Source: Candidatus Babeliales bacterium
GTDB taxonomy: Bacteria > Babelota > Babeliae > Babelales > JBFXEV01
Direction: 5' to 3'
DNA length: 64,000 nucleotides
Assembly (NCBI GenBank): GCA_050179755.1
Contig: JBFXEV010000001.1
Location: 521,994 to 585,993 of the forward strand
The translations under genes and the position numbers were made by a program. The notes under the pieces were generated by a model, which had not been told where the DNA came from, did not search any database, and saw nothing but the letters and a program-made list of their open reading frames with translations. Shown here one piece after another: positions 4,610-53,953 of this stretch. Each line of letters begins with the position of its first letter. The first letter of the stretch is position 1.

Positions 4610-6370
4610 ATGCAATTTAAATCATTTATTAATAAGCTTCTGATTTGTTCCATTACATTGTTCTGTTCGTTGAATGCAGATAAGTCTTCAATTCTTTCTT
4701 ATAGAGAAATAGAAGAAAATAAGATCATTCCTGACATTTTGGTATCGTTTGAGGACTTGCGAATCGACGCTGCCCCCTATGATGGAGAGTGCACTGCTGA
4801 TCATGTTTATTATAGAGACAATGATGAACGTGGCTTTAGCATAGATCTTACTAGTCATTCTAGCGATCATAGTTCGCATAATTCTTCTGATTCTTATGAA
4901 AAACCAGATACCTTTTTTGATCGGCATGATTCATCGCAAAATGATATCACTAGGTATAATGATGCTGAGAGTAATCTTCGCGAGGTGCAAGGATACAGAT
5001 ATGAGTATCAAGGCAACGATTGTGTGCCAGATTATAACATCAAAGAAGCAAGCCTAATAAAAACAAATGAGATACAGTTGCAACAGAAAATTCAAGCACT
5101 TACACTGGCAAGATGGCCTGATGCTGTAACGATCGATGAAGAAAGCCATTTGTGGCAACAGGAATTAGGTTGTTGGAAAGGTGATAGCTTAAGAGAGGCT
5201 CAGTGTCGGAAAGAAAAACGAATAGCGGCCTATCAAAAATGTAAAAGCGACCCTGTTTTTTTTAAGCAGCATTATTATGAGCTCTCGGGTGAAGCAAAGA
5301 CTTATTTGTATAAGAATCAAATTAATGCAGCGATATTTCAAAAAGGTTTTTATAATGCAATGCAGCATCAATTACATACAGAGTTTATAGAGATAGCTGA
5401 AGAATTAACATGCTATGATATGAATGTACATTATCCGGATACATTCAAACTGGTTCATGTAGATGTTGCGCATGTTACCGCAATAGGTGTTCAGTGCAAT
5501 AAGATGGGCGATGTAATTAAAGCCGCAACTATAGCTGACTTTGCCTGGAAAATTCTTGAATGTGGCCAAGCGGTGCTTAAAGGAGGGTATGATGGATTGA
5601 AGAGCGTTGGATCATATGCATATGAAAATCCTCACGAAGTCCTTCTTTATGGGGTTGCCCCGGAAATTATGAGCGGATATTACACATTAAAATTAATCCA
5701 TTCGATTGGTTCTTTAGTAATAGATATTGCGCAAGTCGGGGCTACTGAGTCTTGTAAAGAAGCACTAAAAAACACTAATCTTCAGGGAGTTTTACATGGA
5801 ACAGCTTCTATTCTTGCCCAGATTTGTTTTAATAATGTACTTAACAAGTTCTCTGTAAAATTTGTTGGAAAGAGTAAGGAATCATTAGCCGCAGTGGTCG
5901 CGGGAGAATGTCCGACAACTTATGCCGCACTTAAAGATGTGTGTAAGGCAAGAGCTAAGCGCTCATCTGATAATATAAAGAATATCAAACACACGTTATT
6001 TAAAGATATAAAAAAAGGCAAAGTTGGTTCAGAGAGTAAAATTAAAATTCCAGTATTATTTAGTGATCTGAAGCAGGCAGAGGCTGATTATCGTGGTATA
6101 ATAAATCATTATTACAATCATATTTTTCAAAAAAGTCATAATTTATCTGTAATATGCTCTAACGAAAAGAGTCTTATTGAGAATATTATTAGCAAAGTAA
6201 CTGATTGTGTAAAAGACAGTCTTTTTTGTGAGGGTAATAATCAAATTTTAACATTAATTAATGGGCATAAGGTGACTATTAGAGTTAATATCTCAAATGG
6301 AAAGTTTAGATCTACTAATATTTTCCTAGGCTGGGCATCTCGGATTTCGGATAATCAAATTAATCTTTAG
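4610..6370 (+). CDS. Putative polymorphic toxin A (signal peptide, conserved domain, variable C-terminal tip)
   Basis: Signal peptide; shares QHxLHxE..EI, N..GD..AD and (H/N)P.E blocks with 51665..53953; tip NHIFQKSHNL...INGHKVTIRV. Confidence 0.65.
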   Translation: MQFKSFINKLLICSITLFCSLNADKSSILSYREIEENKIIPDILVSFEDLRIDAAPYDGECTADHVYYRDNDERGFSIDLTSHSSDHSSHNSSDSYEKPDTFFDRHDSSQNDITRYNDAESNLREVQGYRYEYQGNDCVPDYNIKEASLIKTNEIQLQQKIQALTLARWPDAVTIDEESHLWQQELGCWKGDSLREAQCRKEKRIAAYQKCKSDPVFFKQHYYELSGEAKTYLYKNQINAAIFQKGFYNAMQHQLHTEFIEIAEELTCYDMNVHYPDTFKLVHVDVAHVTAIGVQCNKMGDVIKAATIADFAWKILECGQAVLKGGYDGLKSVGSYAYENPHEVLLYGVAPEIMSGYYTLKLIHSIGSLVIDIAQVGATESCKEALKNTNLQGVLHGTASILAQICFNNVLNKFSVKFVGKSKESLAAVVAGECPTTYAALKDVCKARAKRSSDNIKNIKHTLFKDIKKGKVGSESKIKIPVLFSDLKQAEADYRGIINHYYNHIFQKSHNLSVICSNEKSLIENIISKVTDCVKDSLFCEGNNQILTLINGHKVTIRVNISNGKFRSTNIFLGWASRISDNQINL

Positions 6371-6415
6371 TTGGTACACACTGCTATAGTTTTATAAACA
6401 AGAAAATTAAATATT

Positions 6416-7528
6416 ATGCCATTACCATTTTATGTAATTCCGTTTTTTCGTCAAAATAATAATAATTATGTTTGCTATGTAGGTTATAAAGACAAAAAAA
6501 GCTCAATACTTACTTGTTTATTTAATATTTTAAGCGCTAATCTGAACTTTATTGATGATATAAGTAAAATGAGTGATGGTATGTTATTATTGAATAACAT
6601 ATTGATTATTCTTAAAGAGCGTACTCTTTATAAGATTTTTTTTAAAGATGATGAAGATATGCAAAACAGTGATAACGTTACAGTATTTGCAATTTCTGAA
6701 TTTCATAATTTATTATATGAGTGGCATATTTATCAAAAAGGACGTTGTGATGTAGTGGTTTTTGCATTAATAGATTCAGCTTATTTAATAAATGGTTTTT
6801 ATAGAGAGTTATATGATGAAAGCGCTTTCAATGAGAAAAAACTAATTCTTGCTAAATTTCAGTTACTGTGTGCTAAAGTTGGCTTACTGGACAACGTATT
6901 AGGTGAACAAATAGAAGCAATTCTGGTTAACCATCTTTGCAAGTATCCACAGAATGTTGACTCTTGGCTACAACTAACAATGTTGGAATTTAGCATGTCT
7001 TGGAAAGATCCTTATAGGATGGAAAACTATCTGACAAATGCACTTAGCTTTGATAAAGAAAATATATATGCATTACTTTTTTTGGCATACGCAGACTGGC
7101 TTCATAGAGGAGAAGTGAGGCTTGAGGTTCTTAATAGCTTATCAAAATTAAATGTAGATTCAGAGCATGCATCCATGATAGAGTTTGCCAACGCTTTGGG
7201 CACGATGCTTGATTATCCTGAAAAATACGAGCAACATCTGTTACGATCCATAGCTTTATGCAATAAACATGTTAATAATTACAGCTATTTAGGAAAATTT
7301 TATGGAAAGAGAAATAGAATAAGTGAGGCTCTAGTATGCTATAAACACGCTTTAAATAATATTCAGTATATTGATAATTCTGAAAATCTTTCTTGCAGTG
7401 ATGCAATTGATATACAATCATTCTTTGATTTTTACTACAAGGGAATTCGTATTTCAGAGTATCTGAAGAAAGATTTAGAAATTAAAATAGCAGAATTAGA
7501 AATTGAATCAAAAGAGCATATAACTTAA
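6416..7528 (+). CDS. Putative immunity protein with C-terminal TPR-like domain
   Basis: Directly downstream of toxin A; ISEFHNLLYEW resembles the 51291 protein; YLGKFY..EALVCYKHAL is TPR-like. Confidence 0.55.
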   Translation: MPLPFYVIPFFRQNNNNYVCYVGYKDKKSSILTCLFNILSANLNFIDDISKMSDGMLLLNNILIILKERTLYKIFFKDDEDMQNSDNVTVFAISEFHNLLYEWHIYQKGRCDVVVFALIDSAYLINGFYRELYDESAFNEKKLILAKFQLLCAKVGLLDNVLGEQIEAILVNHLCKYPQNVDSWLQLTMLEFSMSWKDPYRMENYLTNALSFDKENIYALLFLAYADWLHRGEVRLEVLNSLSKLNVDSEHASMIEFANALGTMLDYPEKYEQHLLRSIALCNKHVNNYSYLGKFYGKRNRISEALVCYKHALNNIQYIDNSENLSCSDAIDIQSFFDFYYKGIRISEYLKKDLEIKIAELEIESKEHIT

Positions 7529-7587
7529 TATCTTGTATCGTTTTTAAGAGATATTTTTTCAGCAAATGAGGTCTGTATGAAAGCCCT

Positions 7588-8160
7588 TTAAAGAGTACAT
7601 CTTGTTTTGATCTCTTTTTTAATCGTATAGGGTTGCCAACTCCAATAGCCAAAATCCACAGCACAATTACCTTCGTCAAGCTTTTCTTCATTATGAATTT
7701 GTAAATCGCAGTAACCAAAATTATTTATATAGCTACTATTGTTATTAACTTGGCATAAGGTTGCTTTTTTAAAGTCTAGTGTAATTAAACCATGAGGATT
7801 AAAGCCGTAGCGACCTCCGAATCCAAAAGAAGTATAGCTATCATTTAAGTCAGTCCATAAAATAAATATATACGACGATGTTGGCTCATTATAGACACAT
7901 AAGCCAGCATCATTGTAACCCACCATCATTTTTTTTCTGTAATAAAAAAATTCATTTATTGTGGTGTAACTTAAATATCCAAAAATAAAAGCGTCCCATG
8001 CCAAAGGGAAATCTTTACCATTACTATTTAAGATCATTTGAGTAAATTTGGCACCAAATATCCAAGAATAAACAACAATGAGATTCAGAAATAGGCACAT
8101 TGAACCAAAAAAAAGACTGAGGACTTTAGGTGAGCAAGTATATATTTTTTGAAAGTTCAT
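7588..8160 (-). CDS. Hypothetical membrane protein
   Basis: 190-aa ORF with two N-terminal hydrophobic helices. Confidence 0.6.
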   Translation of the reverse strand: MNFQKIYTCSPKVLSLFFGSMCLFLNLIVVYSWIFGAKFTQMILNSNGKDFPLAWDAFIFGYLSYTTINEFFYYRKKMMVGYNDAGLCVYNEPTSSYIFILWTDLNDSYTSFGFGGRYGFNPHGLITLDFKKATLCQVNNNSSYINNFGYCDLQIHNEEKLDEGNCAVDFGYWSWQPYTIKKEIKTRCTL

Positions 8161-8171
8161 TGTAATTACAT

Positions 8172-8699: not shown

Positions 8700-8848
8700 G
8701 ATCTTACCGCATGAGTTTCAAATAATTCCATGTATTCTGAAGGCATGTAGCTTAGCAATTCTTTCCAATCATATTTATCCAATGACATACCTTGTAAATA
8801 ATTCATAGCTTGTTGATGCGCATCGGCATGGTCTTGCAAAAAGAGCAT
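8696..8848 (-). pseudogene. Short ORF or 3' gene remnant
   Basis: MLFLQDHADAHQQAMNYLQG...ETHAVRS*; its TGA overlaps the next ATG (ATGA); frame open up to the manC stop. Confidence 0.4.
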
Positions 8849-8896
8849 TTGAGCTAAACGTAATTTGATGATATTGCGATCTGGTAAAAGTGGTTC

Positions 8897-9928: not shown

Positions 9929-9929
9929 T

Positions 9930-12990: not shown

Positions 12991-13458
12991 TTAAAAAGGT
13001 GAATAACCTTGTGTTTTAAGATTTTGCATGGTCAAAAAAAGCGGTTCTGGCAAATTGTGCCACGTAGCCCATACCCACTCGGCGCATTTATGTGGTTCAA
13101 GCAACTGAGGCTCGCCGCTGATATATTCTGAACGCATAAAAATGGTTATATAGTGTTTTTGTTCTGAAATAAAGAGATCGTTAGTGATTGTTGCAAATGT
13201 AACATTCTTAAGTTCAAGGCCTGTTTCTTCCAGCACTTCGCGCCGCGCGCATTGTTCAATATCTTCATAGAATTCAAGATGACCGCCAGGAAACGCCCAC
13301 GTACCCTCTCCGTGTGCATTAATGCGCTTGCCAATTAATACGGTATTATTTTTGATAACAATCACGCCCACGCCAATACGTGGCACCATTGGGTTGCCCT
13401 TGGCATCAAAGTTAATTTTATTATTGATGTTGATTGTTTCTTTTCGTGTTATTTCCAT
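12991..13458 (-). CDS. NUDIX hydrolase (MutT/NUDT15-like)
   Basis: PGGHLEFYEDIEQCARREVLEETGL Nudix box; EPHKCAEW. Confidence 0.92.
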   Translation of the reverse strand: MEITRKETININNKINFDAKGNPMVPRIGVGVIVIKNNTVLIGKRINAHGEGTWAFPGGHLEFYEDIEQCARREVLEETGLELKNVTFATITNDLFISEQKHYITIFMRSEYISGEPQLLEPHKCAEWVWATWHNLPEPLFLTMQNLKTQGYSPF

Positions 13459-13540
13459 CTTGTTTTTCTCAAGTTATTCAGTTTAATTGTTATTCTAGTG
13501 TACATTAAAATCACTTGGGTTCATAAAAAATAGGATAAAA

Positions 13541-13969
13541 ATGGCAGATGATATAGCAATTAAAAACGGTATAGTAATTCCTGCTCATGAGCTAGAAATT
13601 ACAGCAAGTAGATCGGGCGGTCCGGGTGGCCAGCATGTGAATAAAACAAGCTCACGCATTACCGTGCGCTGGAATGTAAAAAATAGTCAGGCGCTTACTG
13701 ATGAGCAAAAGGCTCGTTTATTTGAAAAGCTTGCTTCAGAGATAACCGAAGACGGCGATATTTTGGTGCACAGTAGCGAGTCTCGGAGCCAAGGTGCCAA
13801 TAAAAAAAATGCGTTTGATCGCCTTTCGCATAAAATTCATAAGGCACTTTTGGTGCCCAAAAAGCGCATGAAAACCAAAATATCAAAAACTGCAAAAGAT
13901 AAAGCTTTACAAGCCAAAAAAAGGCATAGTGAAATCAAGAAGTTGCGCAGCAAAGATTGGAAGGCTTAA
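13541..13969 (+). CDS. arfB: Alternative ribosome rescue peptidyl-tRNA hydrolase ArfB
   Basis: SRSGGPGGQHVNKT, RSQ..NK, basic C-terminal tail. Confidence 0.93.
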   Translation: MADDIAIKNGIVIPAHELEITASRSGGPGGQHVNKTSSRITVRWNVKNSQALTDEQKARLFEKLASEITEDGDILVHSSESRSQGANKKNAFDRLSHKIHKALLVPKKRMKTKISKTAKDKALQAKKRHSEIKKLRSKDWKA

Positions 13970-13972
13970 TTT

Positions 13973-14560
13973 ATGAAAATATATTTACTTATTATTGCTT
14001 TGCTTAGCGCAAGCGCTGGTTATTTTTTTTTAATTAAACCACAGGGAGGGCAAAGCATGCTAAAACTTGCAAGTAATTCCTTTGTTGATAAAGGTGAAAT
14101 TCCTCAACAGTATACGTGCCAAGGTGAGAATATTAGCCCGGAGCTTCATTGGGATTCTGATATTGAGCATGTTGGCAGTTATGTGCTTATTGTAGATGAC
14201 CCTGATGCGCAAAAAGTGGTGGGTAAAACCTTTGTGCATTGGATTGCATATGTGCCTGAACGCGTGAATGAACTTCCCGAAGGTGCTTCTGGCAAAGGGA
14301 TAGCTTTTACGGGATTTAATGTTGAATTGCATGAAGAACCAAATGATTCAGGAAAAACAGTGTATTATGGGCCATGCCCACCAGCAGGCAGTGGTGTGCA
14401 TACCTATAGATTTACTTTGTATGCAGTAAAAGAAACTGTTGATCAGTTAATTGAACAAAGTAAGTTCGAAGCACCGTTTACCGCTGAAGTCTTTGCAAAA
14501 AATATGGTAGGATCACTACTTGGTCAAGCGCGCATTACGGGCAGCTATGAAAGCAAATAA
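13973..14560 (+). CDS. YbhB/YbcL (PEBP/RKIP-like) protein
   Basis: YTCQGENISPEL, DDPDA..FVHW, YYGPCPP.G.H.YRF. Confidence 0.9.
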   Translation: MKIYLLIIALLSASAGYFFLIKPQGGQSMLKLASNSFVDKGEIPQQYTCQGENISPELHWDSDIEHVGSYVLIVDDPDAQKVVGKTFVHWIAYVPERVNELPEGASGKGIAFTGFNVELHEEPNDSGKTVYYGPCPPAGSGVHTYRFTLYAVKETVDQLIEQSKFEAPFTAEVFAKNMVGSLLGQARITGSYESK

Positions 14561-14565
14561 CTATT

Positions 14566-15201
14566 TTATAAATTGAGTTCCATGATAACCACTTTGCCAT
14601 AATTGGGTTGATCTTCTTCGTGTATTTTGTTAAAACCAACTTTTTCATAAGCTTTTATTGCAGCGATATTATCTGGATGTGGATCAATTATAAATTTCTT
14701 AACTGTATGGCGTTGCTTGATCAATGTTAAAAAGGCTTGCAACGTTTTGGTGCCATATCCTTTGCCAAGATATTCAGGATTTGCAATATAGAGATCCATG
14801 CCGTAGGTGCCCTCAGGATCTTTATTGCCAAAGGCATCTGGAATTTTATGCGCATCATAGTATTGAATAAAGCCGAGTGGTTCTTCATCAACAGAAAAGA
14901 TATATCCATGGACGTTGGAGTTATGCAGATTTTTTGTATATTTTTCTTGAAATTGTTCCCATGGTAACGCATCAAGATGCCACCATTTTTTTACATGTGG
15001 TGTGTGTACCCATCTAAAGAGCTGTGGAAAGTCAAATTCAGTAATGGGTTTAAAAGTAATATTCATTGTGCTCCGTTTTGATTCATAACTTTGTGCAGTA
15101 AGTATTATTTGTAGGTGCAATGCCACTAAAAAAATTACTATAGCGAGAGAATTAAAAGATAGAGTTAATCTTTTCACGTACTTAATCAAGTAGCTTATCA
15201 A
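14566..15201 (-). CDS. GNAT acetyltransferase, AAC(6')-Ib-like
   Basis: PHVKKWW, GFIQYY, GMDLYIA..YLGKGYG, IDP..N.AAIKAYEKVGF. Confidence 0.85.
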   Translation of the reverse strand: MISYLIKYVKRLTLSFNSLAIVIFLVALHLQIILTAQSYESKRSTMNITFKPITEFDFPQLFRWVHTPHVKKWWHLDALPWEQFQEKYTKNLHNSNVHGYIFSVDEEPLGFIQYYDAHKIPDAFGNKDPEGTYGMDLYIANPEYLGKGYGTKTLQAFLTLIKQRHTVKKFIIDPHPDNIAAIKAYEKVGFNKIHEEDQPNYGKVVIMELNL

Positions 15202-16111
15202 AGAATAAGCTTATTTTTGTGCCATAGGCAAGTTCTTGATAATAATATTTCACCGCTTTTTTGGTTAGTGATTTGAGTTGTTGCCATTCTTTATGCGTAT
15301 CAACACTTTGTGCGGTATATGCATGCTTTATTTCAAACATGCTTATTAATACATCTTCTTGTGCACTTTCTAAGCGTCTTAGGGAGCGTTTAGTAGATTT
15401 TGCGTAAGCATCAAAAGAAGTCAAGATATATTTTTTGAAGTTGCTTAAGTAGTTTTTGCATAGCGCAGAACGAGGTTGTTGTTTGCAATAAGCCATGCAC
15501 AGAGAGTGTGATTCTATTGCATCAAGATAGCGTGCAAGAAGTTCCATGTGCTGATTAAAATCTAATCGCGTAGAGAGTTCTTGGTACAATTGCTTTTTAA
15601 ATTCAGAAAGCATCATTTGGAATAGTATTTGATTTTGTACAAGGCTGAGGTCAAGCTCATCAAGAGTATTTAGTTTTTGCCTATTATACGCTCTGCCGGT
15701 TTTAGCATTAAGATCTAAAATATCTCCATTTGCATAATCATATTCTTTAATACAATTGCCTTGTGTATCATAAAAAGCAATTGTTTCTTGATAGCGAGGT
15801 GCGTGTTTACAATAAGGCATGCGATACAAACGTGCTTTGTGTGTTATTTTACACGAGACAGGCCGCGGCTTTGCAGCATAAGGGTCTAGCCGTTCGTCAA
15901 ATGCATAATGTGGGGAAATAGTTTTTAAAGGAACACCATCAGCTGAGTAGTAAGTAACGTGATTTTCGTGCGGCGTGTTATGTATAAAATATGAGGCGCC
16001 AGGTATAATGTTGGGCGATGGATAAAAATAGTTAGCTTGAGTAGTAGATGTATAGTTGAGGTGAAAAAAAAGAGAAATAAATAATAAGGAATTAATAGTA
16101 GGTTTGAACAT
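15182..16111 (-). CDS. Secreted hypothetical protein
   Basis: 309-aa ORF with signal-peptide-like N-terminus. Confidence 0.65.
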   Translation of the reverse strand: MFKPTINSLLFISLFFHLNYTSTTQANYFYPSPNIIPGASYFIHNTPHENHVTYYSADGVPLKTISPHYAFDERLDPYAAKPRPVSCKITHKARLYRMPYCKHAPRYQETIAFYDTQGNCIKEYDYANGDILDLNAKTGRAYNRQKLNTLDELDLSLVQNQILFQMMLSEFKKQLYQELSTRLDFNQHMELLARYLDAIESHSLCMAYCKQQPRSALCKNYLSNFKKYILTSFDAYAKSTKRSLRRLESAQEDVLISMFEIKHAYTAQSVDTHKEWQQLKSLTKKAVKYYYQELAYGTKISLFFDKLLD

Positions 16112-16267
16112 GTTGATATCCTTGTAAAAAAAAGCCTATTGCGGTATAGTGTAGCATAAAAATGGCAGCGTGAAAACTTTTTAAATTTTTCATTGGCTTG
16201 ATTTGGCAAGGATAGCCTTTTGATTGCTCCATGGTCAAACAATTAAAACTCTCACTAAAGGAATATC

Positions 16268-16912
16268 GTGCTATTAATATATGCAAGTCGATTTATAAAG
16301 TGTTGTGTTAGGACTATTGATGCTTTAATTGTTGGCGTTGTGGGTAAGAATAAGGCTTCTGAACCAGAATATGTTAAAAAGGATTATCCGGTTAAAAAGG
16401 TTGTGCATCAGAATCTCATTCAGTTGCTGGTGATCAATGCAAAAAAAGAATTATGGCTTATTGGCGCACAGGACCCTTTTTCAACTTCGGCTGAAGATTT
16501 ATTTTGGTTTACACCGGGGGGCAGTATTGAGGGGGAAGAAACAGTTTTGCAAGCTGCACAGAGAGTTATAGATCGTGAAATTGGATTGTCACACAATGAA
16601 GTGCGTTTTGGCCCTATTGTGTGGTTTGGAGAATTTGAGTATCAATTAATGAATACGGTAACAAAATGTTCTCAACAGTTTATAGTGATTTATACAGAAC
16701 AAAGTTGTATTACCTTGCAGCAGGCCCAAATAGCTAAAAAACTTCCTGTAGTGAAAACAAAATGGTTCACTTATGATGAAATTGTTGCAAGTGAGAGCAT
16801 AGCTCCTATAGGATTGAAAAGAAACATCAAAGATGTCTTGGAACAAAAACATCCAAGTTCTCCCATTAAAATTCCTTTAAGAACCAACGCTAAACAATAC
16901 TATTTTTTATGA
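16268..16912 (+). CDS. NUDIX-fold protein with degenerate Nudix box (start uncertain)
   Basis: FWFTPGGSIEGEETVLQAAQRVIDREIG. Confidence 0.7.
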   Translation: MLLIYASRFIKCCVRTIDALIVGVVGKNKASEPEYVKKDYPVKKVVHQNLIQLLVINAKKELWLIGAQDPFSTSAEDLFWFTPGGSIEGEETVLQAAQRVIDREIGLSHNEVRFGPIVWFGEFEYQLMNTVTKCSQQFIVIYTEQSCITLQQAQIAKKLPVVKTKWFTYDEIVASESIAPIGLKRNIKDVLEQKHPSSPIKIPLRTNAKQYYFL

Positions 16913-17986
16913 TTACTTAATTTCAGGATATTTTGCGGGTGCTTTTAAGCAATATGCTGCAAGATAGCTGCCCTCAGGGTGCTCAGCAATAGTAACATAT
17001 TTTCGTTCCATAAAACCGCCCCGCTCTGATCGTTTCTGCATTTGTGTTGTAATAATATCATGTACGTCAATGTTGTGCGCAACACACAGCGCATCAATAA
17101 CTTCGTAGACGTCAGCAAGTTCATGTATCAGCTCTGCGTGCGTAATTGCAGCTTTTACTTCCTTTGCCTCTTCAAGCAGTTTCAAGCGCAATTCATGATC
17201 AAACTCTTGATCAGTAAGATACTTGGTATGAATTACCGATCCTTGTTCTTGCGCTTGCCTGGGCATTTTATCGCGCCATAATTTATTTTGTACAAAGTAG
17301 CGGTATTTAGGTTGTGCGGGTTGTTCTGTGCATGCATTGCTTTCAAACATAGCCAAAAACTTTTTAAGTGCGCGCATGCGATATTGGTATGGTTCGCCTT
17401 TGTCTTCTTGAACTAACTCGTCTACCGTTTGAGTGGCTCCATCGGGAATAAAGATAGTGTCAAAAGGCGCTTCTTTTCTATGAAGATCAAGCCGCGCACA
17501 AGTAGTAATAGTGCCGTGAATAGTTTCTTCTATGATCGCATATTCATTATCGCCGTACATAAATACAAGCACAATGCGAATATGCATTCGTTGCCCGGTT
17601 TCGATTAATTTAAAAATGCCAGGAAGACCTAATGTTTTATACACAAACTTGGTCATGGTGCCAGGAAAATCGGGATATGCATCAAAAAATACTGCGGTAT
17701 CATCAACAAGCACTGGCTGTTTTAGTGTTTGCCATGCTGCGCGTGCTTTATCAAGTGCGATAGTTTTTTGATCCAGTGTTTGTATTTCTGGAATATCAAG
17801 ATCGCATTGCTGTAATGTTATATGTGAGGCATATTTTTTAAAAAAATCACTTGCTTCTTGGAGTTTTATGGCGTTGCCAGTTACATAATACAGTTGATTG
17901 ATATCTGAGAATGAAGGTCGTGCTGCATTTAAAATATTCATAGTATACCCCATACAAATGATAAGAATCGTGATTTGTTTATGCAT
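16913..17986 (-). CDS. Ham1/ITPase (RdgB-like) fused to all-alpha MazG-like NTP pyrophosphohydrolase
   Basis: VTGN..KLQE, PEIQ, VDDT..PG, FDTIFIPDG; then NKLWRDKMP..KLLEE..ELADVYEV..KR.ERGGF; start at MHKQITIL. Confidence 0.85.
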   Translation of the reverse strand: MHKQITILIICMGYTMNILNAARPSFSDINQLYYVTGNAIKLQEASDFFKKYASHITLQQCDLDIPEIQTLDQKTIALDKARAAWQTLKQPVLVDDTAVFFDAYPDFPGTMTKFVYKTLGLPGIFKLIETGQRMHIRIVLVFMYGDNEYAIIEETIHGTITTCARLDLHRKEAPFDTIFIPDGATQTVDELVQEDKGEPYQYRMRALKKFLAMFESNACTEQPAQPKYRYFVQNKLWRDKMPRQAQEQGSVIHTKYLTDQEFDHELRLKLLEEAKEVKAAITHAELIHELADVYEVIDALCVAHNIDVHDIITTQMQKRSERGGFMERKYVTIAEHPEGSYLAAYCLKAPAKYPEIK

Positions 17987-18066
17987 TGCTTTTATTGACT
18001 CGTGTTTGGTGATTGCATTAAAGTTAGAATAACAAAGTGATATAAAATAACCAGTCGGAGACAAAA

Positions 18067-18954
18067 ATGATAGTAAAATATTTATTGATACTAAGCAGCT
18101 TGTTGTTAAGTGTACAGCTTGATGCCATGCAAGCGCCAGAACAACCATTGCGTATAATGACGTTTAATGTGCGTAGAGCTGGCAAAGAAAGCGCCGACAA
18201 CATGCAAAAAAGTTGGACGAACCGCAAACCGCTTGTTGTTGCAGCTCTTAAAGCGTTGCAGCCTGATATATTTGGTTTGCAAGAACCAACCATTGAACAA
18301 ATTCAAGATATAGAAAATGGCCTTGGTGCGGAGTATGCATGGGTTGGTAAAGGCCGCGGTAAAGAATGGTGGGGAAAATCAGAAGATGAATATAACCCAC
18401 TCTTTTATAAAAACAAACGATTAGAACTTTTAGATTCTGGCACGTTTGTGCTTAATCCATCAGGCGCTTTAAATTGGAGATTTCTATGGAGCCCTAGAAC
18501 CGTTGGCTTGCTCACGCGCATTTCCACCTGGGGCAAATTTAAAGACAGGTTGAATGGCCAAGAATTTTATGTATACAACACACATCTTGATCATAAGTTT
18601 GCAGCAGCGCAAGTGCATGGCATGCAAGCAATTTGCACCAAGATTGGTGAATGTACTGATAAGTTACCGGTAATTTTAATGGGTGATTTTAATACTGAAT
18701 TAACGCCGGCCTTGCTCGAGGGTGAGCTCAAAGATTTTGCCAATACTAAAGCTCTTGCGCAAAATCGAGTTGGCCCAGATCAAACGCGTACGGGGTGGGA
18801 TTTTAAAGAGCTTAAGGACATTGATCATATTTTAGTGAGTAAGCAAGCTCCGGTGGTGGTCAAAGAGCATCGTGTGGTGCAAGAGGAAAGCCGTGAGCGT
18901 ATGCCCAGTGATCATAGGCCAGTGCTTGTTGATCTTCTGTTTATAAAAAAATAA
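18067..18954 (+). CDS. Endonuclease/exonuclease/phosphatase (EEP) family protein, secreted
   Basis: MTFNVR, DIFGLQE, NTHLD, MGDFN, IDHI, SDH motifs; signal peptide. Confidence 0.92.
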   Translation: MIVKYLLILSSLLLSVQLDAMQAPEQPLRIMTFNVRRAGKESADNMQKSWTNRKPLVVAALKALQPDIFGLQEPTIEQIQDIENGLGAEYAWVGKGRGKEWWGKSEDEYNPLFYKNKRLELLDSGTFVLNPSGALNWRFLWSPRTVGLLTRISTWGKFKDRLNGQEFYVYNTHLDHKFAAAQVHGMQAICTKIGECTDKLPVILMGDFNTELTPALLEGELKDFANTKALAQNRVGPDQTRTGWDFKELKDIDHILVSKQAPVVVKEHRVVQEESRERMPSDHRPVLVDLLFIKK

Positions 18955-19030
18955 TAAAAAAGAGAGTTGTATATTTTTTTGTAATTTAAGTACACTGTTT
19001 TTAAAGAATTAAATTTTAAAAGGGTGTGCC

Positions 19031-19597
19031 GTGAAAAAGTATATGCTCAGTTGTTTATTATTGGTTTGTGGAACTGCATCAGCCTACCAGTATCTTTATG
19101 CACCATGGCGCACTGATTATATTTTAAATACTGGCCACAAGCCGGTTGTAAGCTATGATAAGGAGTCATGTGTTTTTTGTGAACGCATTGCAGCTCACGC
19201 TGATGACGTGCATTTTATTTTGCATCGGGCAAAGCACCACATTGTAATTCTTAATAGATACCCATATAATACAGGGCATTTATTGATTATGCCTTATGCA
19301 CATAGCGCCAATTTAGATGATTTATCTGATGATGCACGTTTTGAATTAATAGAACTTGTTACACGCAGTGTGCAAGTACTTAAAAAACGATTAGATGCTC
19401 ATGCAGTTAATGTGGGCATTAATTTGGGAAGCGCGGCTGGGGCCGGCATCCCTGCGCATTTGCATGTTCATTTAGTACCGCGTTGGGAACGTGATACGGG
19501 TTTTTTGGATACGTGCGCTGAAACTAAATTGGTATCAGTTGATTTGGTGAAAGTTTATGAGCAACTAAAAATATGTTTTGAAGCACTAGAAGTTTGA
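19031..19597 (+). CDS. HIT family hydrolase (Ap4A/FHIT-like) with signal peptide
   Basis: LYAPWR, CVFC, NRYPYNTGHL, HLHVHLVPRW. Confidence 0.92.
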   Translation: MKKYMLSCLLLVCGTASAYQYLYAPWRTDYILNTGHKPVVSYDKESCVFCERIAAHADDVHFILHRAKHHIVILNRYPYNTGHLLIMPYAHSANLDDLSDDARFELIELVTRSVQVLKKRLDAHAVNVGINLGSAAGAGIPAHLHVHLVPRWERDTGFLDTCAETKLVSVDLVKVYEQLKICFEALEV

Positions 19598-19650
19598 GAT
19601 ATGAAATGAACACCATGCAAGCAAGCGAACCGCTACATGTTTATTAAAAT

Positions 19651-19690
19651 TACAAAGAAGTACTTAGTTTTTACTTGGTACTTCTTTGTA
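19651..19690. terminator. Bidirectional hairpin terminator
   Basis: Perfect 13-bp stem tacaaagaagtac/gtacttctttgta between convergent genes. Confidence 0.7.
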
Positions 19691-19709
19691 CAAAGAATTT
19701 TTTGTCTTT

Positions 19710-20780
19710 TTAGAATGTCATATTAAATGCAACGTACGGGCCAGTAAGTGCAAAGTTGCTTACATTATTGCGGAACGTTCTTGCAAACACACCCACAGAC
19801 GCTACCTCTGCATTAACATTTGACACTTCACTGCCCACATCTATTTGCTGTAAGGCGTTAAAGTATACGCGTGCCTCATAACCAACTTCTAAGCGAGCCG
19901 TATAAGTGCACCAGAAGCGAGCCTCATAAGCGGCACCGATTCTTTGTTCAAACACAGGTACAACAATAGTCATTTTGTCAGTTATCACTGTTTGTAAGTT
20001 AGGATAGGTTATCGGCCCAATGGGTGGCGCTGGTTGCACAGGAGATACGGAGCTAAACAAAGTATCATTTTTTCGTTTACCTATAAGAATCGCTGCTGCG
20101 AGTTTGCCAGAAAGACTTAAGCCACAAAATATATCATAGTCAAAGCAAGCGCCGAATTCAGGACCGGCACCTTTAAAACTTATGGGTGCAATTATGGAGC
20201 GCGTAGTGTTGCCATTAGTGCTTGAAAAGAAGCTGGTTGTTGTTTGTTTAAGGGAGGTAAAGTTTACACCACCAAAAAAGTGAGTTTCTAAGTTGCCAAA
20301 CTCAACAAATTGCGCAACGTTTACATGTACTGTGTTAAAATTGAATTTTGTTCGTCCTGTTGAATTTTGATAAGGTGTTGCTTCTGGTCCAATTTCAAAA
20401 AAGGGCCCTATCATGTCTGTAGGGGCAGGTGCAGTGTGAGAATTTTCTGATGTAGAATTAAAATGCTCCCAATTGATGCCTAAGCTTCTACAATCATTAA
20501 AAAGGCTTGAGCGCACGCCCAGGTCAAAGCCAAAATGATATGTAGGATGTATGTCATAAATTGTCCAACGTGGCGAAGGTGCTGGTAGCGTGGTAGCCTG
20601 TGCTGCATAATGCAAGTTGCTCGTGCTCGGCTTAAGAATCAATGCTCTAAATTGAACAGCAAACGTATAGGGAATGCTGCTTACAGAAACATTGCCACAT
20701 GGCCTACAGTCATCATAAGCACGTGCTGTGAGGGCAGGACAAACGGCGAAGGCTATTATATAATAGAGACATTTTTTCAT
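19710..20780 (-). CDS. Lpg1974-like (Legionella MOMP) outer-membrane beta-barrel
   Basis: Signal peptide, P.YHFGFDLG, F.GAGP.FG, LEVGY, C-terminal GPY..F. Confidence 0.75.
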   Translation of the reverse strand: MKKCLYYIIAFAVCPALTARAYDDCRPCGNVSVSSIPYTFAVQFRALILKPSTSNLHYAAQATTLPAPSPRWTIYDIHPTYHFGFDLGVRSSLFNDCRSLGINWEHFNSTSENSHTAPAPTDMIGPFFEIGPEATPYQNSTGRTKFNFNTVHVNVAQFVEFGNLETHFFGGVNFTSLKQTTTSFFSSTNGNTTRSIIAPISFKGAGPEFGACFDYDIFCGLSLSGKLAAAILIGKRKNDTLFSSVSPVQPAPPIGPITYPNLQTVITDKMTIVVPVFEQRIGAAYEARFWCTYTARLEVGYEARVYFNALQQIDVGSEVSNVNAEVASVGVFARTFRNNVSNFALTGPYVAFNMTF

Positions 20781-20933
20781 GTGTACTTCCTTTTTTAAGA
20801 TAGAATTTACTTGGTGGTAAGAAGTTTAGCATATTTTTTTAGTAAAAAAAGCTAGCGAGGATTGTTATATTGAGAAAATGCGTAAAATCAGCTATTATCA
20901 ATCTATTGCTCTCTTGTTATCCAAAGGACTTTT

Positions 20934-23537: not shown

Positions 23538-24342
23538 TTTTTCTCTAGCCGCTCAAGACCCTTTGATGCATTTTCCCTGCGGGAAATTACTCAGGGAGAG
23601 CGGGATTTATTGGTTATTTTTAATAAGTTTTGTTTTTGCTTTTAACTTGCTTGCCGCTCACCCTGAGTGTTCTTTGAGCGTTCAGGCGAAAGAGAAAGCA
23701 GCGAAGGGTCAAGCGGAACAAATATCTGCTGCAGCACAAGTTATGAATAAAGAAATAGAAATCAAAATACAAGTTGATGATGCGCAATTTACCTTGCTCA
23801 AGGCATGGTTGTCTGAGCATGCGGAATTTAAAGGGGCGCTGCATCACACAGAATGGTATCTTGATAATCCGCAAGACACTTTCTTCTTCACCTCGCAAGA
23901 AGGCTATAAAGATGCGCTCAAGTATTTACGTGTGCGGCACACTGAGCGGGGAGATTCGGTAGCATATAAATTGTGGCATAGAGATCCAGAAACGGGTAAA
24001 ACCACGCATTGTGATGAATATGAAACTAACGTTGAGAATGGGCAAGTAATGCTTGCGCTTTTTGCACAATTAGGTTTCTCTGAGCAAACCAAGATTGCAA
24101 AGCGTAGAGAAGCGTATGAAACTCCAGAGTTTGAAATTGCCATTGATCACATTGAAGGCCTTGGTTATTTTGTGGAAATTGAAGTGTTGCATCCTAAAGA
24201 GAATGTAAAAGAGTCACTTGCGGATATTTATGATTTCTTGAAAAGGATTGGCATCACGCGGTTTTGCAAAATAGAACGGGGGTATGTGAGTATGTTTTGG
24301 AATCCAGAATATGATTTTGGTGATTTGGTAGAGTTGAAATAA
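23524..24342 (+). CDS. CYTH family (class IV adenylate cyclase-like) protein
   Basis: EIEIK (ExExK), LRVR, K.RE.Y, D.IEGLGYFVEIE; N-terminal hydrophobic extension. Confidence 0.85.
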   Translation: MLKTSFSLAAQDPLMHFPCGKLLRESGIYWLFLISFVFAFNLLAAHPECSLSVQAKEKAAKGQAEQISAAAQVMNKEIEIKIQVDDAQFTLLKAWLSEHAEFKGALHHTEWYLDNPQDTFFFTSQEGYKDALKYLRVRHTERGDSVAYKLWHRDPETGKTTHCDEYETNVENGQVMLALFAQLGFSEQTKIAKRREAYETPEFEIAIDHIEGLGYFVEIEVLHPKENVKESLADIYDFLKRIGITRFCKIERGYVSMFWNPEYDFGDLVELK

Positions 24343-40716: not shown

Positions 40717-41085
40717 TGGTGGAGGCGATGGGAATCGAACCCATGTCCGCATAACAGCAAACATAAAGCGCTACATGCTTAGTTTTCTTTAATACTTATA
40801 GAACACCCTGAAAACTTGGGTATTGTTATATAAGCCAGTTGTGTGATACAAATTTGCTATACAACTAAAAATCCTTGCAAAAAGGTTCTATCTGATTAAT
40901 ACGAATGTGGCCAACTGATAGACACGTTAGACACATAAGAACTTAAGCTACTGCTAGAGCAGAGCTGAAGTTAGTGAGATTAATATCTGCACTTATTGTT
41001 TTGATCACAGGTTTATCGAGTCTGTTGATCAAGGCTCGGCATGCTCTCTATGCGTCCTATAACACGTCGAAGCCAGGACGCCCCC
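40717..41085 (-). ncRNA. ssrA: tmRNA
   Basis: 5' GGGGGCGTCCTGGCTTCGAC; 3' GGACATGGGTTCGATTCCCATCGCCTCCACCA; G3-U acceptor pair; tag ORF 40990-40943 ADINLTNFSSALAVA*. Confidence 0.95.
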
Positions 41086-43604: not shown

Positions 43605-43647
43605 AAGAATCTTTCTTTCTTGCTGGGAGGTGATCTATCTAATCATA

Positions 43648-46937: not shown

Positions 46938-46938
46938 C

Positions 46939-47385
46939 TTATCTTCCCCTTAATGCTCGTTCCGTTTCTCGTTTGATATCTTTTTCTTTTAATGAATGCT
47001 TTTTATCCGTAGCATTTTTGTGTTTGCATAACCCAATCTCCGCTTTTATAATACCTTTTTTATTGGCATATAATTTTAAGGGGATTAATGTTACACCCTT
47101 GCGAGACATGTCACCAATAATGCGTGCAATTTCTCTGCGGTGCAATAGGAGCTTGCGGCTTCGCGTGGGCTCTGCGCCTTTCATATACGCTTGCGCATAA
47201 GGACTTATATTGACATTAAGTAAGTAAAGCTCGCCATCCTTAAAGGTGGCATACGAGCCGCCAAGTGAGGCTTGGCCAAGTTTGATTGATTTGACCTCGT
47301 CACCAACAAGCACTATGCCTGCTTCAATAGTATCAAGTACTTGGTAATCGTGAAATGCTTTTTTGTTTTGAGCAAATATTTTCAT
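46939..47385 (-). CDS. smpB: SsrA-binding protein
   Basis: NKKAFHDY..EAGIVL.G.EVKS, RSRKLLLH..EI, G.TLIPL. Confidence 0.98.
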   Translation of the reverse strand: MKIFAQNKKAFHDYQVLDTIEAGIVLVGDEVKSIKLGQASLGGSYATFKDGELYLLNVNISPYAQAYMKGAEPTRSRKLLLHRREIARIIGDMSRKGVTLIPLKLYANKKGIIKAEIGLCKHKNATDKKHSLKEKDIKRETERALRGR

Positions 47386-47396
47386 AGAGTAATCTT

Positions 47397-48758: not shown

Positions 48759-48759
48759 T

Positions 48760-49776: not shown

Positions 49777-49793
49777 AACATCAAATCAACGCT

Positions 49794-51209: not shown

Positions 51210-51290
51210 CGTTATCTCCTTTAAAAATTTTACTTCATGCTTACCATACCATAAATTGAAATGACGGCAAATGTGAATAGCACTTTTTAA

Positions 51291-51665
51291 TTATTCTCCT
51301 GCGATAGTCATGGTGCCATCATCTGATTGAATTATGGTTATTTTTTTAGTTTTGCTTTCTACAAGTTTTTGCCATTCTTGAAGCAATTTAATAAATTGAT
51401 CGATTGAAATTTTGAAAAATGCGCCACCATCGGGTTCATCGGCAAATAAAGATCCAATTAAAATAAAATTATTTTTTTTCTCAAGCCATGCGCTATTAGT
51501 TCCGGTTATGAATTCATGAGGATTTAAGGCCCATTTTGTAAATGTAGGAATTGAATGTAATCGAATATCATTTAAGAAATAACCAAGATATCCAATTTTC
51601 CCTACATATTCATCAATTGTATAAGTTTTGAAGTTATCTGGGAGTGTTATTAATAATTTTTGCAT
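51291..51665 (-). CDS. Putative immunity protein of the EndoU toxin
   Basis: 124 aa; ATG overlaps toxin stop (TAATG). Confidence 0.7.
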   Translation of the reverse strand: MQKLLITLPDNFKTYTIDEYVGKIGYLGYFLNDIRLHSIPTFTKWALNPHEFITGTNSAWLEKKNNFILIGSLFADEPDGGAFFKISIDQFIKLLQEWQKLVESKTKKITIIQSDDGTMTIAGE

Positions 51666-53953
51666 TAATTCTCGATTACAGGATATGCGGTTACTATATT
51701 ACATTTGTTATCAATATACATTTCTATTTCCATTCCAGAATTAGTTTTGCTTTTAATATGATATTTTCCATCTAATTCAGGTCCTTTTTTTATTCCGGTA
51801 GCTTTAAAATTTTCATAAGCTTCAATAATGCTTTCTAAAACTTGAGTTCGTGTCCAATGCTTAGGGAAAAAAGTTTTCGCTGTTTTTGTGCCATTCCATA
51901 TTACATCAGCCATATATTCGCCAAATTCACCAATCTTTAAGTTTTCAAGCGTAATTACGCCCTTTTCTTCTAGAATGCCCAAGAAATCATGATGGAAACC
52001 TTTTATCTGATTCGTGCTTTTTGGGTCAATAGTAAATATATGCTCAATTTTAATTTTTAAATACCGATTAGAATTTTCTCGCCAGTCTTCACATTTTTTT
52101 TCAGCAACAAATAAACGAAGCATTTCCATTTCTGCTTGATTTGTATTTGTAACATTAGTTACAGCGGTAATTGCTTGCTGCGCAGCGCCAGTCAATAAGT
52201 TGGGTGTTTCACGTGATATTGCATTTTTAACAAATTCAATTGCTTCAACACGTTCTTTTAGCAGATTTTTGGTAATACTTTTTTGAACATCATTAAAGTT
52301 TTTTGTAATAGATGTGATTCTGGGTGGCATGGCATTTGTAGAAACCAAATGACCACCTGCTGATGCAGGAACTTCTAAACTAGGAATAGCTTTAACGTTA
52401 ATAACTTCTTTCCACGTGCCTGCTTCATCCATAACCCATTCACAATAATGCTCTGATCTTGATACGTTTCTTTGCACAAAATTTTCAACAGTCTTGCAAG
52501 TTCTGGCAATGCGATTACATGTTTTGGAGATTGCTTTATTGCTAAATAACTCTAATTTGGTAGACAGAGCATTGATGCTAGGTTTTGCAATATGCTTGAT
52601 AGCAGCTGATTTTGCTTTGCCTACTTGCTTTAAGAATTTACCGGTAAAATAAAGCTCGAATGCAAATGCAACTATTTTTTGTGTTTTTTCTTCTGTAGGT
52701 AACTTTGCAAATTCTTCTGAAGCTTGGTTGTAATAGGCTTTTAATGTTTGTACATCATTGATAAAATCAGGATTTTGTAATTCATATGGGGCAAAAGTAT
52801 CTTCTCGATCTTTATTGTAAACGGGAAAATAGCCTATTTCATTGCAAGCGCCATCAAAACCAACATGCTGAGCAAGATCATTTAGTTCCACCATGCCATG
52901 CAATAAAAATTTGCCAACTTCATTACCCAAAATAATAAGATTTTCGCCCGTTTCAATAGGATGCCTGATCATATGGCAAGTATTTTTTACAATATTAGCG
53001 CCACCTTCAACAGCTCCAACAACAACTGCCCCTACTTGTTTGATAATCATTGCAAGTCTTGGATATTCAGCTTCGTTGAGCCATCTACAGTAATCCGCAA
53101 TTTTAAAGCCGCGAACTATGTCGCCTTGTGTATTTAGTTGGCGAGCAAGGTCAGCGCCTTCTACTACTAGATCGGTAAATAGCGGATTTTCCTGGTGTTC
53201 AGAAAATATTTTATTAATTTCATAATTGGTAGTTAGAATTTCTAATATTTCTTGGTGCAAGCGATGTTGGATTATATTACCATGGCATTTTGCAAAACTT
53301 TTAGCATGTAAGGCATTTTCTTGCATGTAAGACCCAAGTGCTGTTGGTATGCTATAGGTCTTTTCATATACAATGGGGTCATTTTCTGCATGATTAAAAA
53401 CTTCTAAACGTTCAGTATAGCGTTGTTGTACGGTGTCAAAAGGATATTGCTCAAGTTCAAGAATAGATTGTGCAATTTCATCTTTATACTTATTAAAAGA
53501 AGGCTGCCGCTCAACAGTTTCTTCATCTTCTAACCAATTAACTGTAGTTTCAATGCCATCACCAATTTTATCTAATATTTTGCCTGGGGTTTTAACGATT
53601 TTTTTGCCCAGAGCAGCTACTCGTTTTCCTGAACTCTTTATTCCTTGCCAAATACCTTTGCCAATATTTTTCCATGCGTCTTTAAAGTCTTCAAAGCCAG
53701 TCGGTTCATTAGATGATCGAGTATGAGTTGGAAAATCCCACGTATAATCATGGATAACGCGCACGTTAACATGATCTTGTATCATTTCAGGTAACGATTG
53801 TAATTTATATTTTGAGTCAGATTTGAAATCTAAATAATGTTTATTAGTTTGTGAATCATAATAATAGTCAGAATCACAAAAACTAGCCGCGTACCAAAAG
53901 AAAACTGAATAGCAAAGTAAGACTGATATAAAGAAATGATGTTTTTTGTACAT
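51665..53953 (-). CDS. Putative polymorphic toxin B with C-terminal bacterial EndoU nuclease domain
   Basis: EHIF..KGFHH..KTFFP..WT...V...I.EAY..TAYP EndoU signature; signal peptide MYKKHHFF..AASFC. Confidence 0.85.
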   Translation of the reverse strand: MYKKHHFFISVLLCYSVFFWYAASFCDSDYYYDSQTNKHYLDFKSDSKYKLQSLPEMIQDHVNVRVIHDYTWDFPTHTRSSNEPTGFEDFKDAWKNIGKGIWQGIKSSGKRVAALGKKIVKTPGKILDKIGDGIETTVNWLEDEETVERQPSFNKYKDEIAQSILELEQYPFDTVQQRYTERLEVFNHAENDPIVYEKTYSIPTALGSYMQENALHAKSFAKCHGNIIQHRLHQEILEILTTNYEINKIFSEHQENPLFTDLVVEGADLARQLNTQGDIVRGFKIADYCRWLNEAEYPRLAMIIKQVGAVVVGAVEGGANIVKNTCHMIRHPIETGENLIILGNEVGKFLLHGMVELNDLAQHVGFDGACNEIGYFPVYNKDREDTFAPYELQNPDFINDVQTLKAYYNQASEEFAKLPTEEKTQKIVAFAFELYFTGKFLKQVGKAKSAAIKHIAKPSINALSTKLELFSNKAISKTCNRIARTCKTVENFVQRNVSRSEHYCEWVMDEAGTWKEVINVKAIPSLEVPASAGGHLVSTNAMPPRITSITKNFNDVQKSITKNLLKERVEAIEFVKNAISRETPNLLTGAAQQAITAVTNVTNTNQAEMEMLRLFVAEKKCEDWRENSNRYLKIKIEHIFTIDPKSTNQIKGFHHDFLGILEEKGVITLENLKIGEFGEYMADVIWNGTKTAKTFFPKHWTRTQVLESIIEAYENFKATGIKKGPELDGKYHIKSKTNSGMEIEMYIDNKCNIVTAYPVIEN

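Follow-up and report, generated by a model that had tools for sequence, protein, structure and literature searches.

Candidate Sec-exported polymorphic ribonuclease toxins sharing a helical module at two loci of a Candidatus Babeliales genome

Introduction

The phylum Dependentiae (TM6) consists of protist parasites that are widespread, almost uncultured and known mostly from genomes. We analyzed a 64,000-nucleotide stretch of DNA, hereafter the window, from a Candidatus Babeliales bacterium (GenBank assembly GCA_050179755.1, contig JBFXEV010000001.1, positions 521,994 to 585,993 of the forward strand). Two genes in it, here called gene A and gene B, encode proteins that share a central module and end in unrelated ribonuclease (RNase) domains, referred to as tips, and each is followed by a candidate immunity gene. 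A preliminary description of the window, made from the sequence alone, had proposed that the two genes represent a new polymorphic toxin family, and the analysis below follows up that proposal.

Two loci with a shared module and different tips

Gene A and gene B form two loci separated by about 45 kb of DNA that carries ordinary housekeeping genes; the housekeeping genes between and around the two loci include those for AlaRS, Pth, SmpB, tmRNA, TsaD, GDP-mannose and GDP-fucose enzymes, glycosyltransferases, and many nucleotide hydrolases. The features of the two loci, with lengths in amino acids (aa) or nucleotides (nt), are as follows.

4610..6370, forward strand: gene A (P0001, 586 aa), intact open reading frame (ORF), from its translation and a Pfam match to Ntox35
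4610..4678, forward strand: gene A residues 1-23, Sec-type signal peptide, from a hydrophobic core (heuristic)
5105..5644, forward strand: gene A residues 166-345, shared helical module with QHQLHTE at 253-259, from BLASTP, hidden Markov model (HMM) and hhalign
6113..6367, forward strand: gene A residues 502-586, Ntox35 (BECR-fold RNase) tip, PF15534 at 502-570 with 29.7 bits against a cut-off of 23.6
6416..7528, forward strand: P0003 (370 aa), TPR-like, proposed Ntox35 immunity protein, 45 nt past the stop of gene A
51291..51665, reverse strand: P0004 (124 aa), proposed EndoU immunity protein, its start overlapping the stop of gene B as TAATG
51665..53953, reverse strand: gene B (P0002, 762 aa), intact ORF, from its translation and a Pfam match to EndoU_bacteria
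51677..52048, reverse strand: gene B residues 636-759, EndoU RNase tip, PF14436 with 55.2 bits against a cut-off of 25.3
52919..53503, reverse strand: gene B residues 151-345, shared helical module with QHRLHQE at 229-235, from BLASTP, HMM, hhalign and AlphaFold2
53882..53953, reverse strand: gene B residues 1-24, Sec-type signal peptide, from a hydrophobic core (heuristic)

The gene A product consists, in order, of a signal peptide, an acidic variable region, the shared helical module, a linker and the Ntox35 RNase tip, and that of gene B of a signal peptide, an N-terminal region, the module, a long linker and the EndoU RNase tip. The ATG at 53953 gives gene B the 762-aa form that is present in a public protein collection; an alternative upstream start, TTG at 54034, gives 789 aa. 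Gene A has an ortholog, P0011, with 62% identity over the full length, and gene B has five relatives at 47-57% identity as well as an ortholog in a related locus (L001, see below). Promoter and terminator scans at both loci performed no better than scans of shuffled sequences.

Signal peptides were judged by a hydrophobicity heuristic rather than by a dedicated predictor; the 10-residue Kyte-Doolittle maxima within the first 40 residues were 2.67 for gene A and 2.29 for gene B. An N-terminal hydrophobic core was likewise found in 108 of 145 relatives starting with methionine, compared with 3 in a control window at residues 101-140; counts on individual relatives, here and throughout, come from the best 150 of the 324 sequence clusters recovered with the module. 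The preliminary description had read both ORFs correctly, as well as their Sec-type signal peptides, their unrelated C-termini and the co-oriented gene behind each (P0003 after gene A, P0004 after gene B). Its span of 4610..53953 is to be read as two loci rather than one unit, and the shared domain, which is real, lies centrally (residues ~166-345 in A and ~151-345 in B) and not at the N-terminus, where it had been placed.

The module is an uncatalogued domain family

BLASTP aligned residues 197-311 of the gene A product with residues 175-288 of the gene B product, 31 of 117 positions being identical (26%, E 2e-9). When both proteins were searched by phmmer against the 230 six-frame ORFs of at least 60 aa in the window, the sole match of each was the other (E 1.6e-9 and 2.7e-9), and hhalign matched a profile of five gene B relatives to residues 189-336 of A over 142 columns (probability 85%, E 6.5e-6). 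The similarity is thus far beyond chance. Every motif quoted in the preliminary description is present, and the window holds exactly two copies of the module, whose HMM envelope in A covers residues 133-387.

An exhaustive HMMER search with a module profile built from three sequences retrieved 324 clusters (at 50% identity) at E≤1e-3, 48 of them at E≤1e-10 and 6 at E≤1e-30, so that the HMM search suggested at the outset disclosed a sizeable family. A word-indexed homolog search with the gene B module returned five close relatives only and missed gene A. The matched core is constant at about 160-200 aa (profile positions ~50-270) in proteins of 172-1464 aa, and its position in them ranges from the N-terminus to past residue 1000. 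Six relatives (P0013, P0014, P0015, P0022, P0023 and P0043) carry two copies of the module, the first usually partial. The idea that A and B resemble each other through chance or composition, with no family behind them, could appeal to their 26% identity; it is refuted by the reciprocal match, unique in the window, at E 2e-9, by the 324 clusters, and by the conserved motifs and confident fold described next, and its probability is vanishingly small.

In an alignment of 102 sequences, ten positions are at least 90% conserved (R182, Y200, G225, Q229, H233, E235, N274, D287, G313 and P332 in gene B), and the family consensus reads GNxLQHxLHxE ... N..G ... IADFCxW ... HPxxT. The QHxLHxE motif occurs in its exact form in 42 of 153 proteins and in a relaxed form in 110; in gene A the IADFCxW motif lacks the cysteine. 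Among 102 full-length proteins, QHxLHxE lies 300-450 aa from the C-terminus in 69, and the distance of the module from the N-terminus varies between 29 and 968 aa. The module keeps its place relative to the tip end of these proteins rather than to their N-terminus. The helices that follow it are moderately hydrophobic and Gly/Ala-rich (residues 297-322 in B, 353-380 in A).

A second motif, roughly (L/V)x(T/S)[PA]EG and here called TPEG, occurs in many relatives (P0014-P0083 and others); a simple regular expression found it in 49 of the 102 full-length proteins. It lies 200-225 aa past QHxLHxE in 30 of these 49 and 125-150 aa before the C-terminus in 20. By analogy with VENN in CdiA, TPEG likely marks the junction of the constant and variable parts, and it may perhaps act as a recombination motif.

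An AlphaFold2 model of gene B residues 140-470, computed from a 102-row alignment, reached a mean predicted local distance difference test (pLDDT) score of 78, with ten-residue blocks over model residues 11-150 scoring 88-98. In the model, the module is made of helices and two short strands, and long helices come after it. Searching with this model, Foldseek returned no match at E≤0.001 in PDB (best E 0.7, to designed helical repeats and V-ATPase helices) or in BFVD (best E 0.18, to tape-measure proteins); the structure prediction proposed in the preliminary description therefore yielded a confident core whose fold has no solved counterpart by Foldseek.

Sequence searches against known families gave the same picture. 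Pfam profiles left the module unmatched at E≤1 in A, B and 16 relatives, and at E≤1e-4 in 145 relatives; the scan at E≤1e-4 covered 145 of the 147 new matches, leaving out P0155 and P0156. NCBIfam had no match in A, B or P0004. A sequence search of PDB found no match to the module (best E 1.1, to ACE2, with the profile; best E 0.55 with gene B; none with gene A), and tblastn of the module against plasmids and phages found none. By Pfam, RHS, TPS, FHA, PAAR and LXG domains were absent from A, B and the 145 relatives, and the pre-toxin domains PT-TG, PT-VENN and PT-HINT were absent from A, B and 16 relatives at E≤1 and from the 145 relatives at E≤1e-4. Since at E≤1e-4 Pfam named tips and no other domain across the 145 relatives, none of them carries an RHS, TPS, PAAR, LXG or MafB domain. 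The earlier statement that the domain resembles no known delivery domain, MafB and LXG included, agrees with the Pfam, NCBIfam and PDB results, and the shared region is a real, uncatalogued domain family.

An Atlas search with the gene B module ranked unrelated small clusters best, with a MafB cluster at 0.87 and structure rows at TM≤0.27. This weak lead toward MafB was rejected, as PF06255 had no match in A or B (E≤1), in the 145 relatives (E≤1e-4) or in the 16 relatives (E≤1).

Two other roles for the module bear on these data. It could be an enzyme, either an autoprocessing peptidase whose cut at the junction frees the tip, or an additional activity that is toxic or degrades the envelope. 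Seven of the ten positions conserved at 90% or more are polar (R182, Y200, Q229, H233, E235, N274 and D287), the module sits at a fixed distance from the conserved junction motif, and releasing peptidases are described as common in polymorphic toxins (HINT, ZU5 and PrsW, in parts of PMC3482391 and PMC9424270). We nevertheless regard an enzymatic role as unlikely, because no enzyme family was found by sequence, the best Foldseek match in PDB has an E of 0.7, gene A lacks the cysteine of IADFCxW, and two module copies in some proteins would be odd for a single-turnover self-cleaver. Alternatively, the module might anchor or cluster the toxin on the surface of the producer for contact-dependent use. 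The overall plan is in principle that of MAFB-N, Microscilla-N and APD1/2 (PMC3482391), and several relatives have a cysteine near the end of the signal peptide; however, the attachment of the module to the tip end, with an N-terminal distance of 29-968 aa, and the lack of a conserved mafA-like partner gene beside A, B or the three related loci L001-L003 make such an anchor distinctly improbable.

Tips are exchanged on a constant module

The tips of gene A and gene B belong to different toxin families. Residues H504 and H510 of the gene A tip are invariant in 10 Ntox35-tipped relatives, and the 'H, KH' signature given for Ntox35 in PMC3482391 is present; Ntox35 is also listed, in a section of PMC13460014, as an experimentally validated tRNA-cleaving BECR RNase. 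Across 28 relatives with EndoU tips, the residue corresponding to H638 is kept in 27 and that corresponding to H654 in all 28, and P697 and W700 are conserved.

A Pfam toxin family was recognized at the C-terminus of 39 of the 145 relatives, and these belong to six families: EndoU_bacteria (23, one below the gathering score), Ntox35 (8), Ntox17 (4), Ntox21 (2), and single cases of Ribonuclease (PF00545) and Cytotoxic (PF09000). The last 130 aa of 121 relatives, limited to proteins with at least 150 aa past the module, fell into 28 BLAST clusters. Tabulating the C-termini, as the preliminary description had advised, thus revealed homologs that are anything but uniform, and the family joins a constant central part to diverse, unrelated toxin tips, which is one criterion of Zhang et al. 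(2012). The second largest tip cluster, T2 (20 proteins, e.g., P0021, P0029, P0049 and P0075), matches no Pfam family above cut-off. In scans at permissive E, weak matches to DUF4258 (E 2.9e-4 to 0.08) were seen in P0029, P0049, P0075 and P0083, and none in P0021. Judged by sequence, T2 and about 21 further unnamed tip clusters are candidate new toxin domains.

On a module tree obtained by quick maximum likelihood from 120 rows, tip type requires 67 changes, where the minimum is 27 and the mean over shuffles is 83.7, and none of 200 shuffles was as low. The well-supported branches alone require at least 5 changes for EndoU and at least 10 for the unnamed cluster, and the clade that holds gene A (7 rows, 97% support) contains four tip types. 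Base composition also changes: the GC fraction drops from about 0.37-0.39 in the constant parts to 0.24-0.29 over the gene A tip and the start of P0003, and is 0.29-0.33 across the gene B tip and P0004. This drop at the tips and the adjoining immunity genes fits imported cassettes.

Related loci show tip replacement and orphan cassettes

A genome scan with a narrow pattern derived from a 12-sequence alignment matched 175 stretches, three of which (L001, L002 and L003) were confirmed; all three lie in OY970310.1, a 1.87-Mb sequence labeled 'MAG: Candidatus Babeliales bacterium' (MAG, metagenome-assembled genome). To date, Candidatus Babeliales (Dependentiae/TM6) is the only named source of the family, whose taxonomic range is under-sampled, because the pattern is narrow and all three loci come from one genome.

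L002 is syntenic with locus A, with 75% identity for the C11 peptidase, 62% for ComEC and 68% for ManC, and its gene order is C11 peptidase, ComEC, a 196-aa gene, the toxin gene and, later, ManC. The L002 toxin has a module 37% identical to that of A and a linker 61% identical to that of P0018, which is Ntox35-tipped, and then continues into an unrelated tip. The toxin gene is followed by two paralogous genes, of 126 and then 123 aa, and between them lies an orphan tip with 52% identity to the resident one. Farther along, 49 nt upstream of the P0003 ortholog, there is a remnant of an Ntox35 tip: 39 aa that end in a stop and are 82% identical to the end of P0018 and 51% to the end of A. This remnant, together with the new tip, is what one would expect after the displacement of an older tip-immunity cassette by a new one.

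L003 encodes a 1388-aa toxin (3406..7572) with two module copies and a weak EndoU-like tip, past which immunity-like paralogs of 269 and 272 aa (43% identity) stand on both sides of an orphan tip (46% identity). L001 holds the gene B ortholog, with an EndoU tip, and then four tandem P0004 paralogs that are 36-52% identical to P0004. Orphan tips or immunity cassettes and tip displacement are accordingly present in L002 and L003. Upstream of the L001 toxin, tandem ankyrin-repeat genes were also observed.

These loci bear on whom the toxins would act against. The proteins could be host-directed effectors, whose RNase tips would pass the vacuole or host membranes into the protist host and degrade its RNA for nutrients or for shut-off, the neighboring genes protecting the producer before export. 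Dependentiae are described in part of PMC6561590 as obligate intracellular protist parasites with many secreted hydrolases, and the same text notes an endoU in C. destructans, which it calls a cytoplasmic endonuclease; Zhang et al. (PMC3482391) propose host-directed, polymorphic-toxin-like effectors in endosymbionts, e.g., APD1/2 of Amoebophilus, and the window is rich in nucleotide-scavenging hydrolases. Against a host, however, spare immunity arrays (four genes in L001) and orphan cassettes (L002 and L003) would be needless, while they fit mutual resistance, and the rapid turnover of tips among close relatives fits kin conflict. We consider host attack rather unlikely and favor competition between bacteria, because spare immunity genes require bacteria that meet each other's toxins.

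Downstream genes as candidate immunity genes

P0003 is TPR-like by Atlas and, weakly, by Pfam, and has an ortholog, P0158, with 71% identity. A complex model of P0003 with residues 470-586 of gene A scored 0.78, compared with 0.09 for the best of three controls; of 157 solved complexes, 116 attain a score of 0.78, as do 2 of 215 mismatched pairs, a calibration that holds only roughly here since our own alignments were used. Model runs shared at least 72% of contacts, with a partner pLDDT of at least 80. The predicted interface involves tip residues 499-504, 506-509 and 511; it includes H504 and flanks H510, which is not itself listed, and its position over the conserved H504 is as active-site occlusion would look. 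The model supports the binding of P0003 to the Ntox35 tip. P0003 could be a mere conserved neighbor, given that the L002 ortholog of P0003 does not adjoin the toxin gene; this reading is less likely given the Ntox35 remnant just before that ortholog and the complex model.

The AlphaFold2 model of P0004 has a pLDDT of 92.7. Foldseek found no match to it in PDB at E≤0.001 (best E 0.029), for which reason P0004 could not be linked to SUKH or other solved immunity folds. By genomic context and modeling, a tip-specific immunity gene is predicted directly downstream of each toxin gene.

Proposed mechanism and its weighing

A constant module on exchangeable tips, syntenic tip replacement, orphan tips and spare immunity genes are all observed. 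With a probability of roughly 0.72, we interpret gene A and gene B as paralogs in a large, Sec-exported family of polymorphic RNase toxins with tip-cognate immunity neighbors. The polymorphic toxin system put forward in the preliminary description was borne out in its varying tips, its immunity-type neighbors and, in relatives, its orphan cassettes.

In the mechanism that we propose, each protein would be built from a signal peptide, a variable N-terminal region, the helical module of about 180 aa (GNxxQHxLHxE ... IADFCxW ... HPxxT), a helical linker, often closed by a TPEG junction, and, at the C-terminus, an RNase tip of about 130 aa that can be exchanged. Export would proceed by Sec and then probably by a type II system, which belongs to the TM6 core gene set according to a part of PMC4776705. 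The module and linker may bind the target or carry the tip across a membrane, and the tip, whose catalytic histidines are kept, would cleave RNA. The gene directly 3' of the toxin gene would encode the cognate immunity protein, P0003 for Ntox35 and P0004 for EndoU, which would bind the tip and shield the producer and its kin. The main target would probably be competing bacteria, that is, co-infecting relatives, rather than the host. New tip-immunity cassettes would be gained by recombination at or near the junction, displacing old tips and leaving orphans behind. The fixed spacing of module and tip and the Gly/Ala-rich helices past the module suggest a role in delivery for it.

Several points weigh against this interpretation. 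Toxicity, neutralization, secretion and target are proposed from sequence and models, and the near-invariant polar residues of the module (R, Y, Q, H, E, N and D) would be compatible with an enzyme as well. Support for the module tree is weak and is lacking at 59 of its 117 inner branches, and the named relatives with genomic context are three loci of a single genome. Within the window there are no orphan tips or extra immunity genes, and the TPEG motif is only degenerate in A and B. The gene B ortholog of L001 (at ~5990) and the toxin gene of L002 (at ~6630) switch reading frame mid-gene, which may reflect assembly error or decay (pseudogenization); an intact form, P0009, exists elsewhere, with 98% identity over residues 167-743. 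As to the neighbors, TPR-like immunity proteins are, to our knowledge, unusual; the P0003 ortholog is kept in L002 although no Ntox35 tip is intact there, as would also be expected of a protein whose role is independent of the tip; and hhalign related the P0004 family to the L003 immunity candidates weakly (probability 32%, E 4.8e-4).

A further, speculative reading concerns entry. By analogy with the diphtheria toxin T domain or a colicin translocation domain, the module and the Gly/Ala-rich linker might form a self-contained membrane-translocation device, with which a Sec-exported RNase would cross the target membrane without a dedicated injection machine. They would then amount to a phylum-wide plug-in platform, used within host cells against co-infecting bacteria, possibly acting across the host vacuole membrane as well, and, as there is no solved counterpart, to a new translocation fold. 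We rate this as quite unlikely.

Should the polymorphic RNase toxin interpretation hold, obligate intracellular parasites with genomes of about 1.5 Mb would still invest in bacterial warfare, implying frequent co-infection and competition inside protist hosts. The module, with a confident and unmatched predicted fold in 324 clusters, would be a candidate new entry route for nucleases, the approximately 22 tip clusters that have no Pfam name would be a pool of candidate toxin domains, and the two immunity families would be without known relatives.

Comparison with known systems

That MAFB-N, Microscilla-N and APD1/2 combine a signal peptide and a lineage-specific constant domain with swapped tips was described in 2012 (PMC3482391), and the same principle reappeared in 2022 in the BetaH/S8-PTS toxins (sections of PMC9424270 and bioRxiv 10.1101/2025.07.24.666436). 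New here are the module and the lineage; the principle was already known.

MafB of Neisseria (MAFB-N/DUF1020, PF06255) is alike in its Sec signal peptide, lineage-restricted constant domain, variable toxins, immunity genes and orphan cassettes, and the EndoU, Ntox35, Ntox17 and Ntox21 tips are all listed with 'T2SS (MafBN)' in a portion of PMC3482391. It is unlike the present family in that PF06255 is absent from A, B and the relatives scanned, there is no upstream mafA-like lipoprotein gene, and the lineage is another one. The Gram-positive S8-PTS/ABP toxins share the signal peptide, a constant domain, tips of the Ntox35, Ntox21 and ColE3 types and a downstream immunity gene (parts of PMC9424270 and PMC13460014), whereas no S8 peptidase gene is present at locus A or B or among their neighbors. 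Their BetaH domain, proposed as a receptor-binding or entry module, is described in PMC9424270 as about 120 aa of seven-stranded sheet around one helix, acidic and with no universally conserved residue; the module here has about 180 aa, is helical in the AlphaFold2 model and has ten near-invariant positions.

APD1 and APD2 of Amoebophilus asiaticus likewise come from an amoeba-associated intracellular bacterium and combine a signal peptide and lineage-specific domains with highly variable C-termini (PMC3482391). In contrast to our family, they have a lipobox and mostly eukaryote-directed domains, lack immunity genes and are regarded as acting in parallel on the host; the RNase tips, immunity genes and orphan cassettes of the present family set its organization apart from theirs. 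CdiA-CT and Rhs-CT (VENN and DPxGL junctions) also have a conserved junction before a tip of about 130 aa, cassettes, orphan modules and EndoU tips, while the relatives here are without TPS, FHA, RHS, PAAR and PT-VENN domains and have a signal peptide as their only export feature.

In the literature searched, nothing linked Dependentiae to polymorphic toxins. On Babeliales and EndoU, the only items found there were the C. destructans paper and its preprint (PMC6561590), which treat endoU as a cytoplasmic nuclease, and the main text of PMC4776705 does not contain the word 'toxin'.

Other features of the window

Near locus A, a Peptidase_C11 (clostripain-type) gene at 821..2329 on the reverse strand lies about 2.3 kb upstream of the toxin gene, and its counterpart in L002 (1562..3037) is 75% identical. 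S8-PTS toxins are known to be processed by a peptidase encoded at their locus. In the low-GC stretch past P0003, a 190-aa ORF at 7588..8160 on the reverse strand has a hydrophobic N-terminal segment; it has no counterpart in L002, weakly matches Pfam Hfx_Cass5 (integron cassette protein, E 0.0097), and may be cargo that came with the cassette. Beside locus B, the gene at 55019..55987 (reverse strand, 322 aa) encodes a protein with a signal-peptide-like N-terminus and a DXD sugar-binding glycosyltransferase region (PF04488, E 3.4e-13), and it also matches, over a short stretch, positions 1-40 of the profile for the catalytic glycosyltransferase of TcdA/TcdB (PF12919, E 8.1e-9); from these matches, it is possibly a secreted glycosyltransferase effector.

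Elsewhere, a run of hydrolase genes at 12991..24342 comprises two NUDIX genes, a Ham1-like gene fused to PRA-PH, HIT, CYTH and an endonuclease/exonuclease/phosphatase-family gene, and these nucleotide-handling genes fit a host-dependent, nucleotide-scavenging lifestyle. A Legionella-type major outer membrane protein is encoded at 19710..20780, and an ORF on the reverse strand at 1..576, open at the window edge, encodes a WD40 beta-propeller protein whose repeats are eukaryote-like. Rfam matched a single feature of the window, an ordinary transfer-messenger RNA (tmRNA) at 40717..41085 on the reverse strand, with the tag ADINLTNFSSALAVA, and an equally ordinary SmpB gene lies at 46939..47385 on the same strand.

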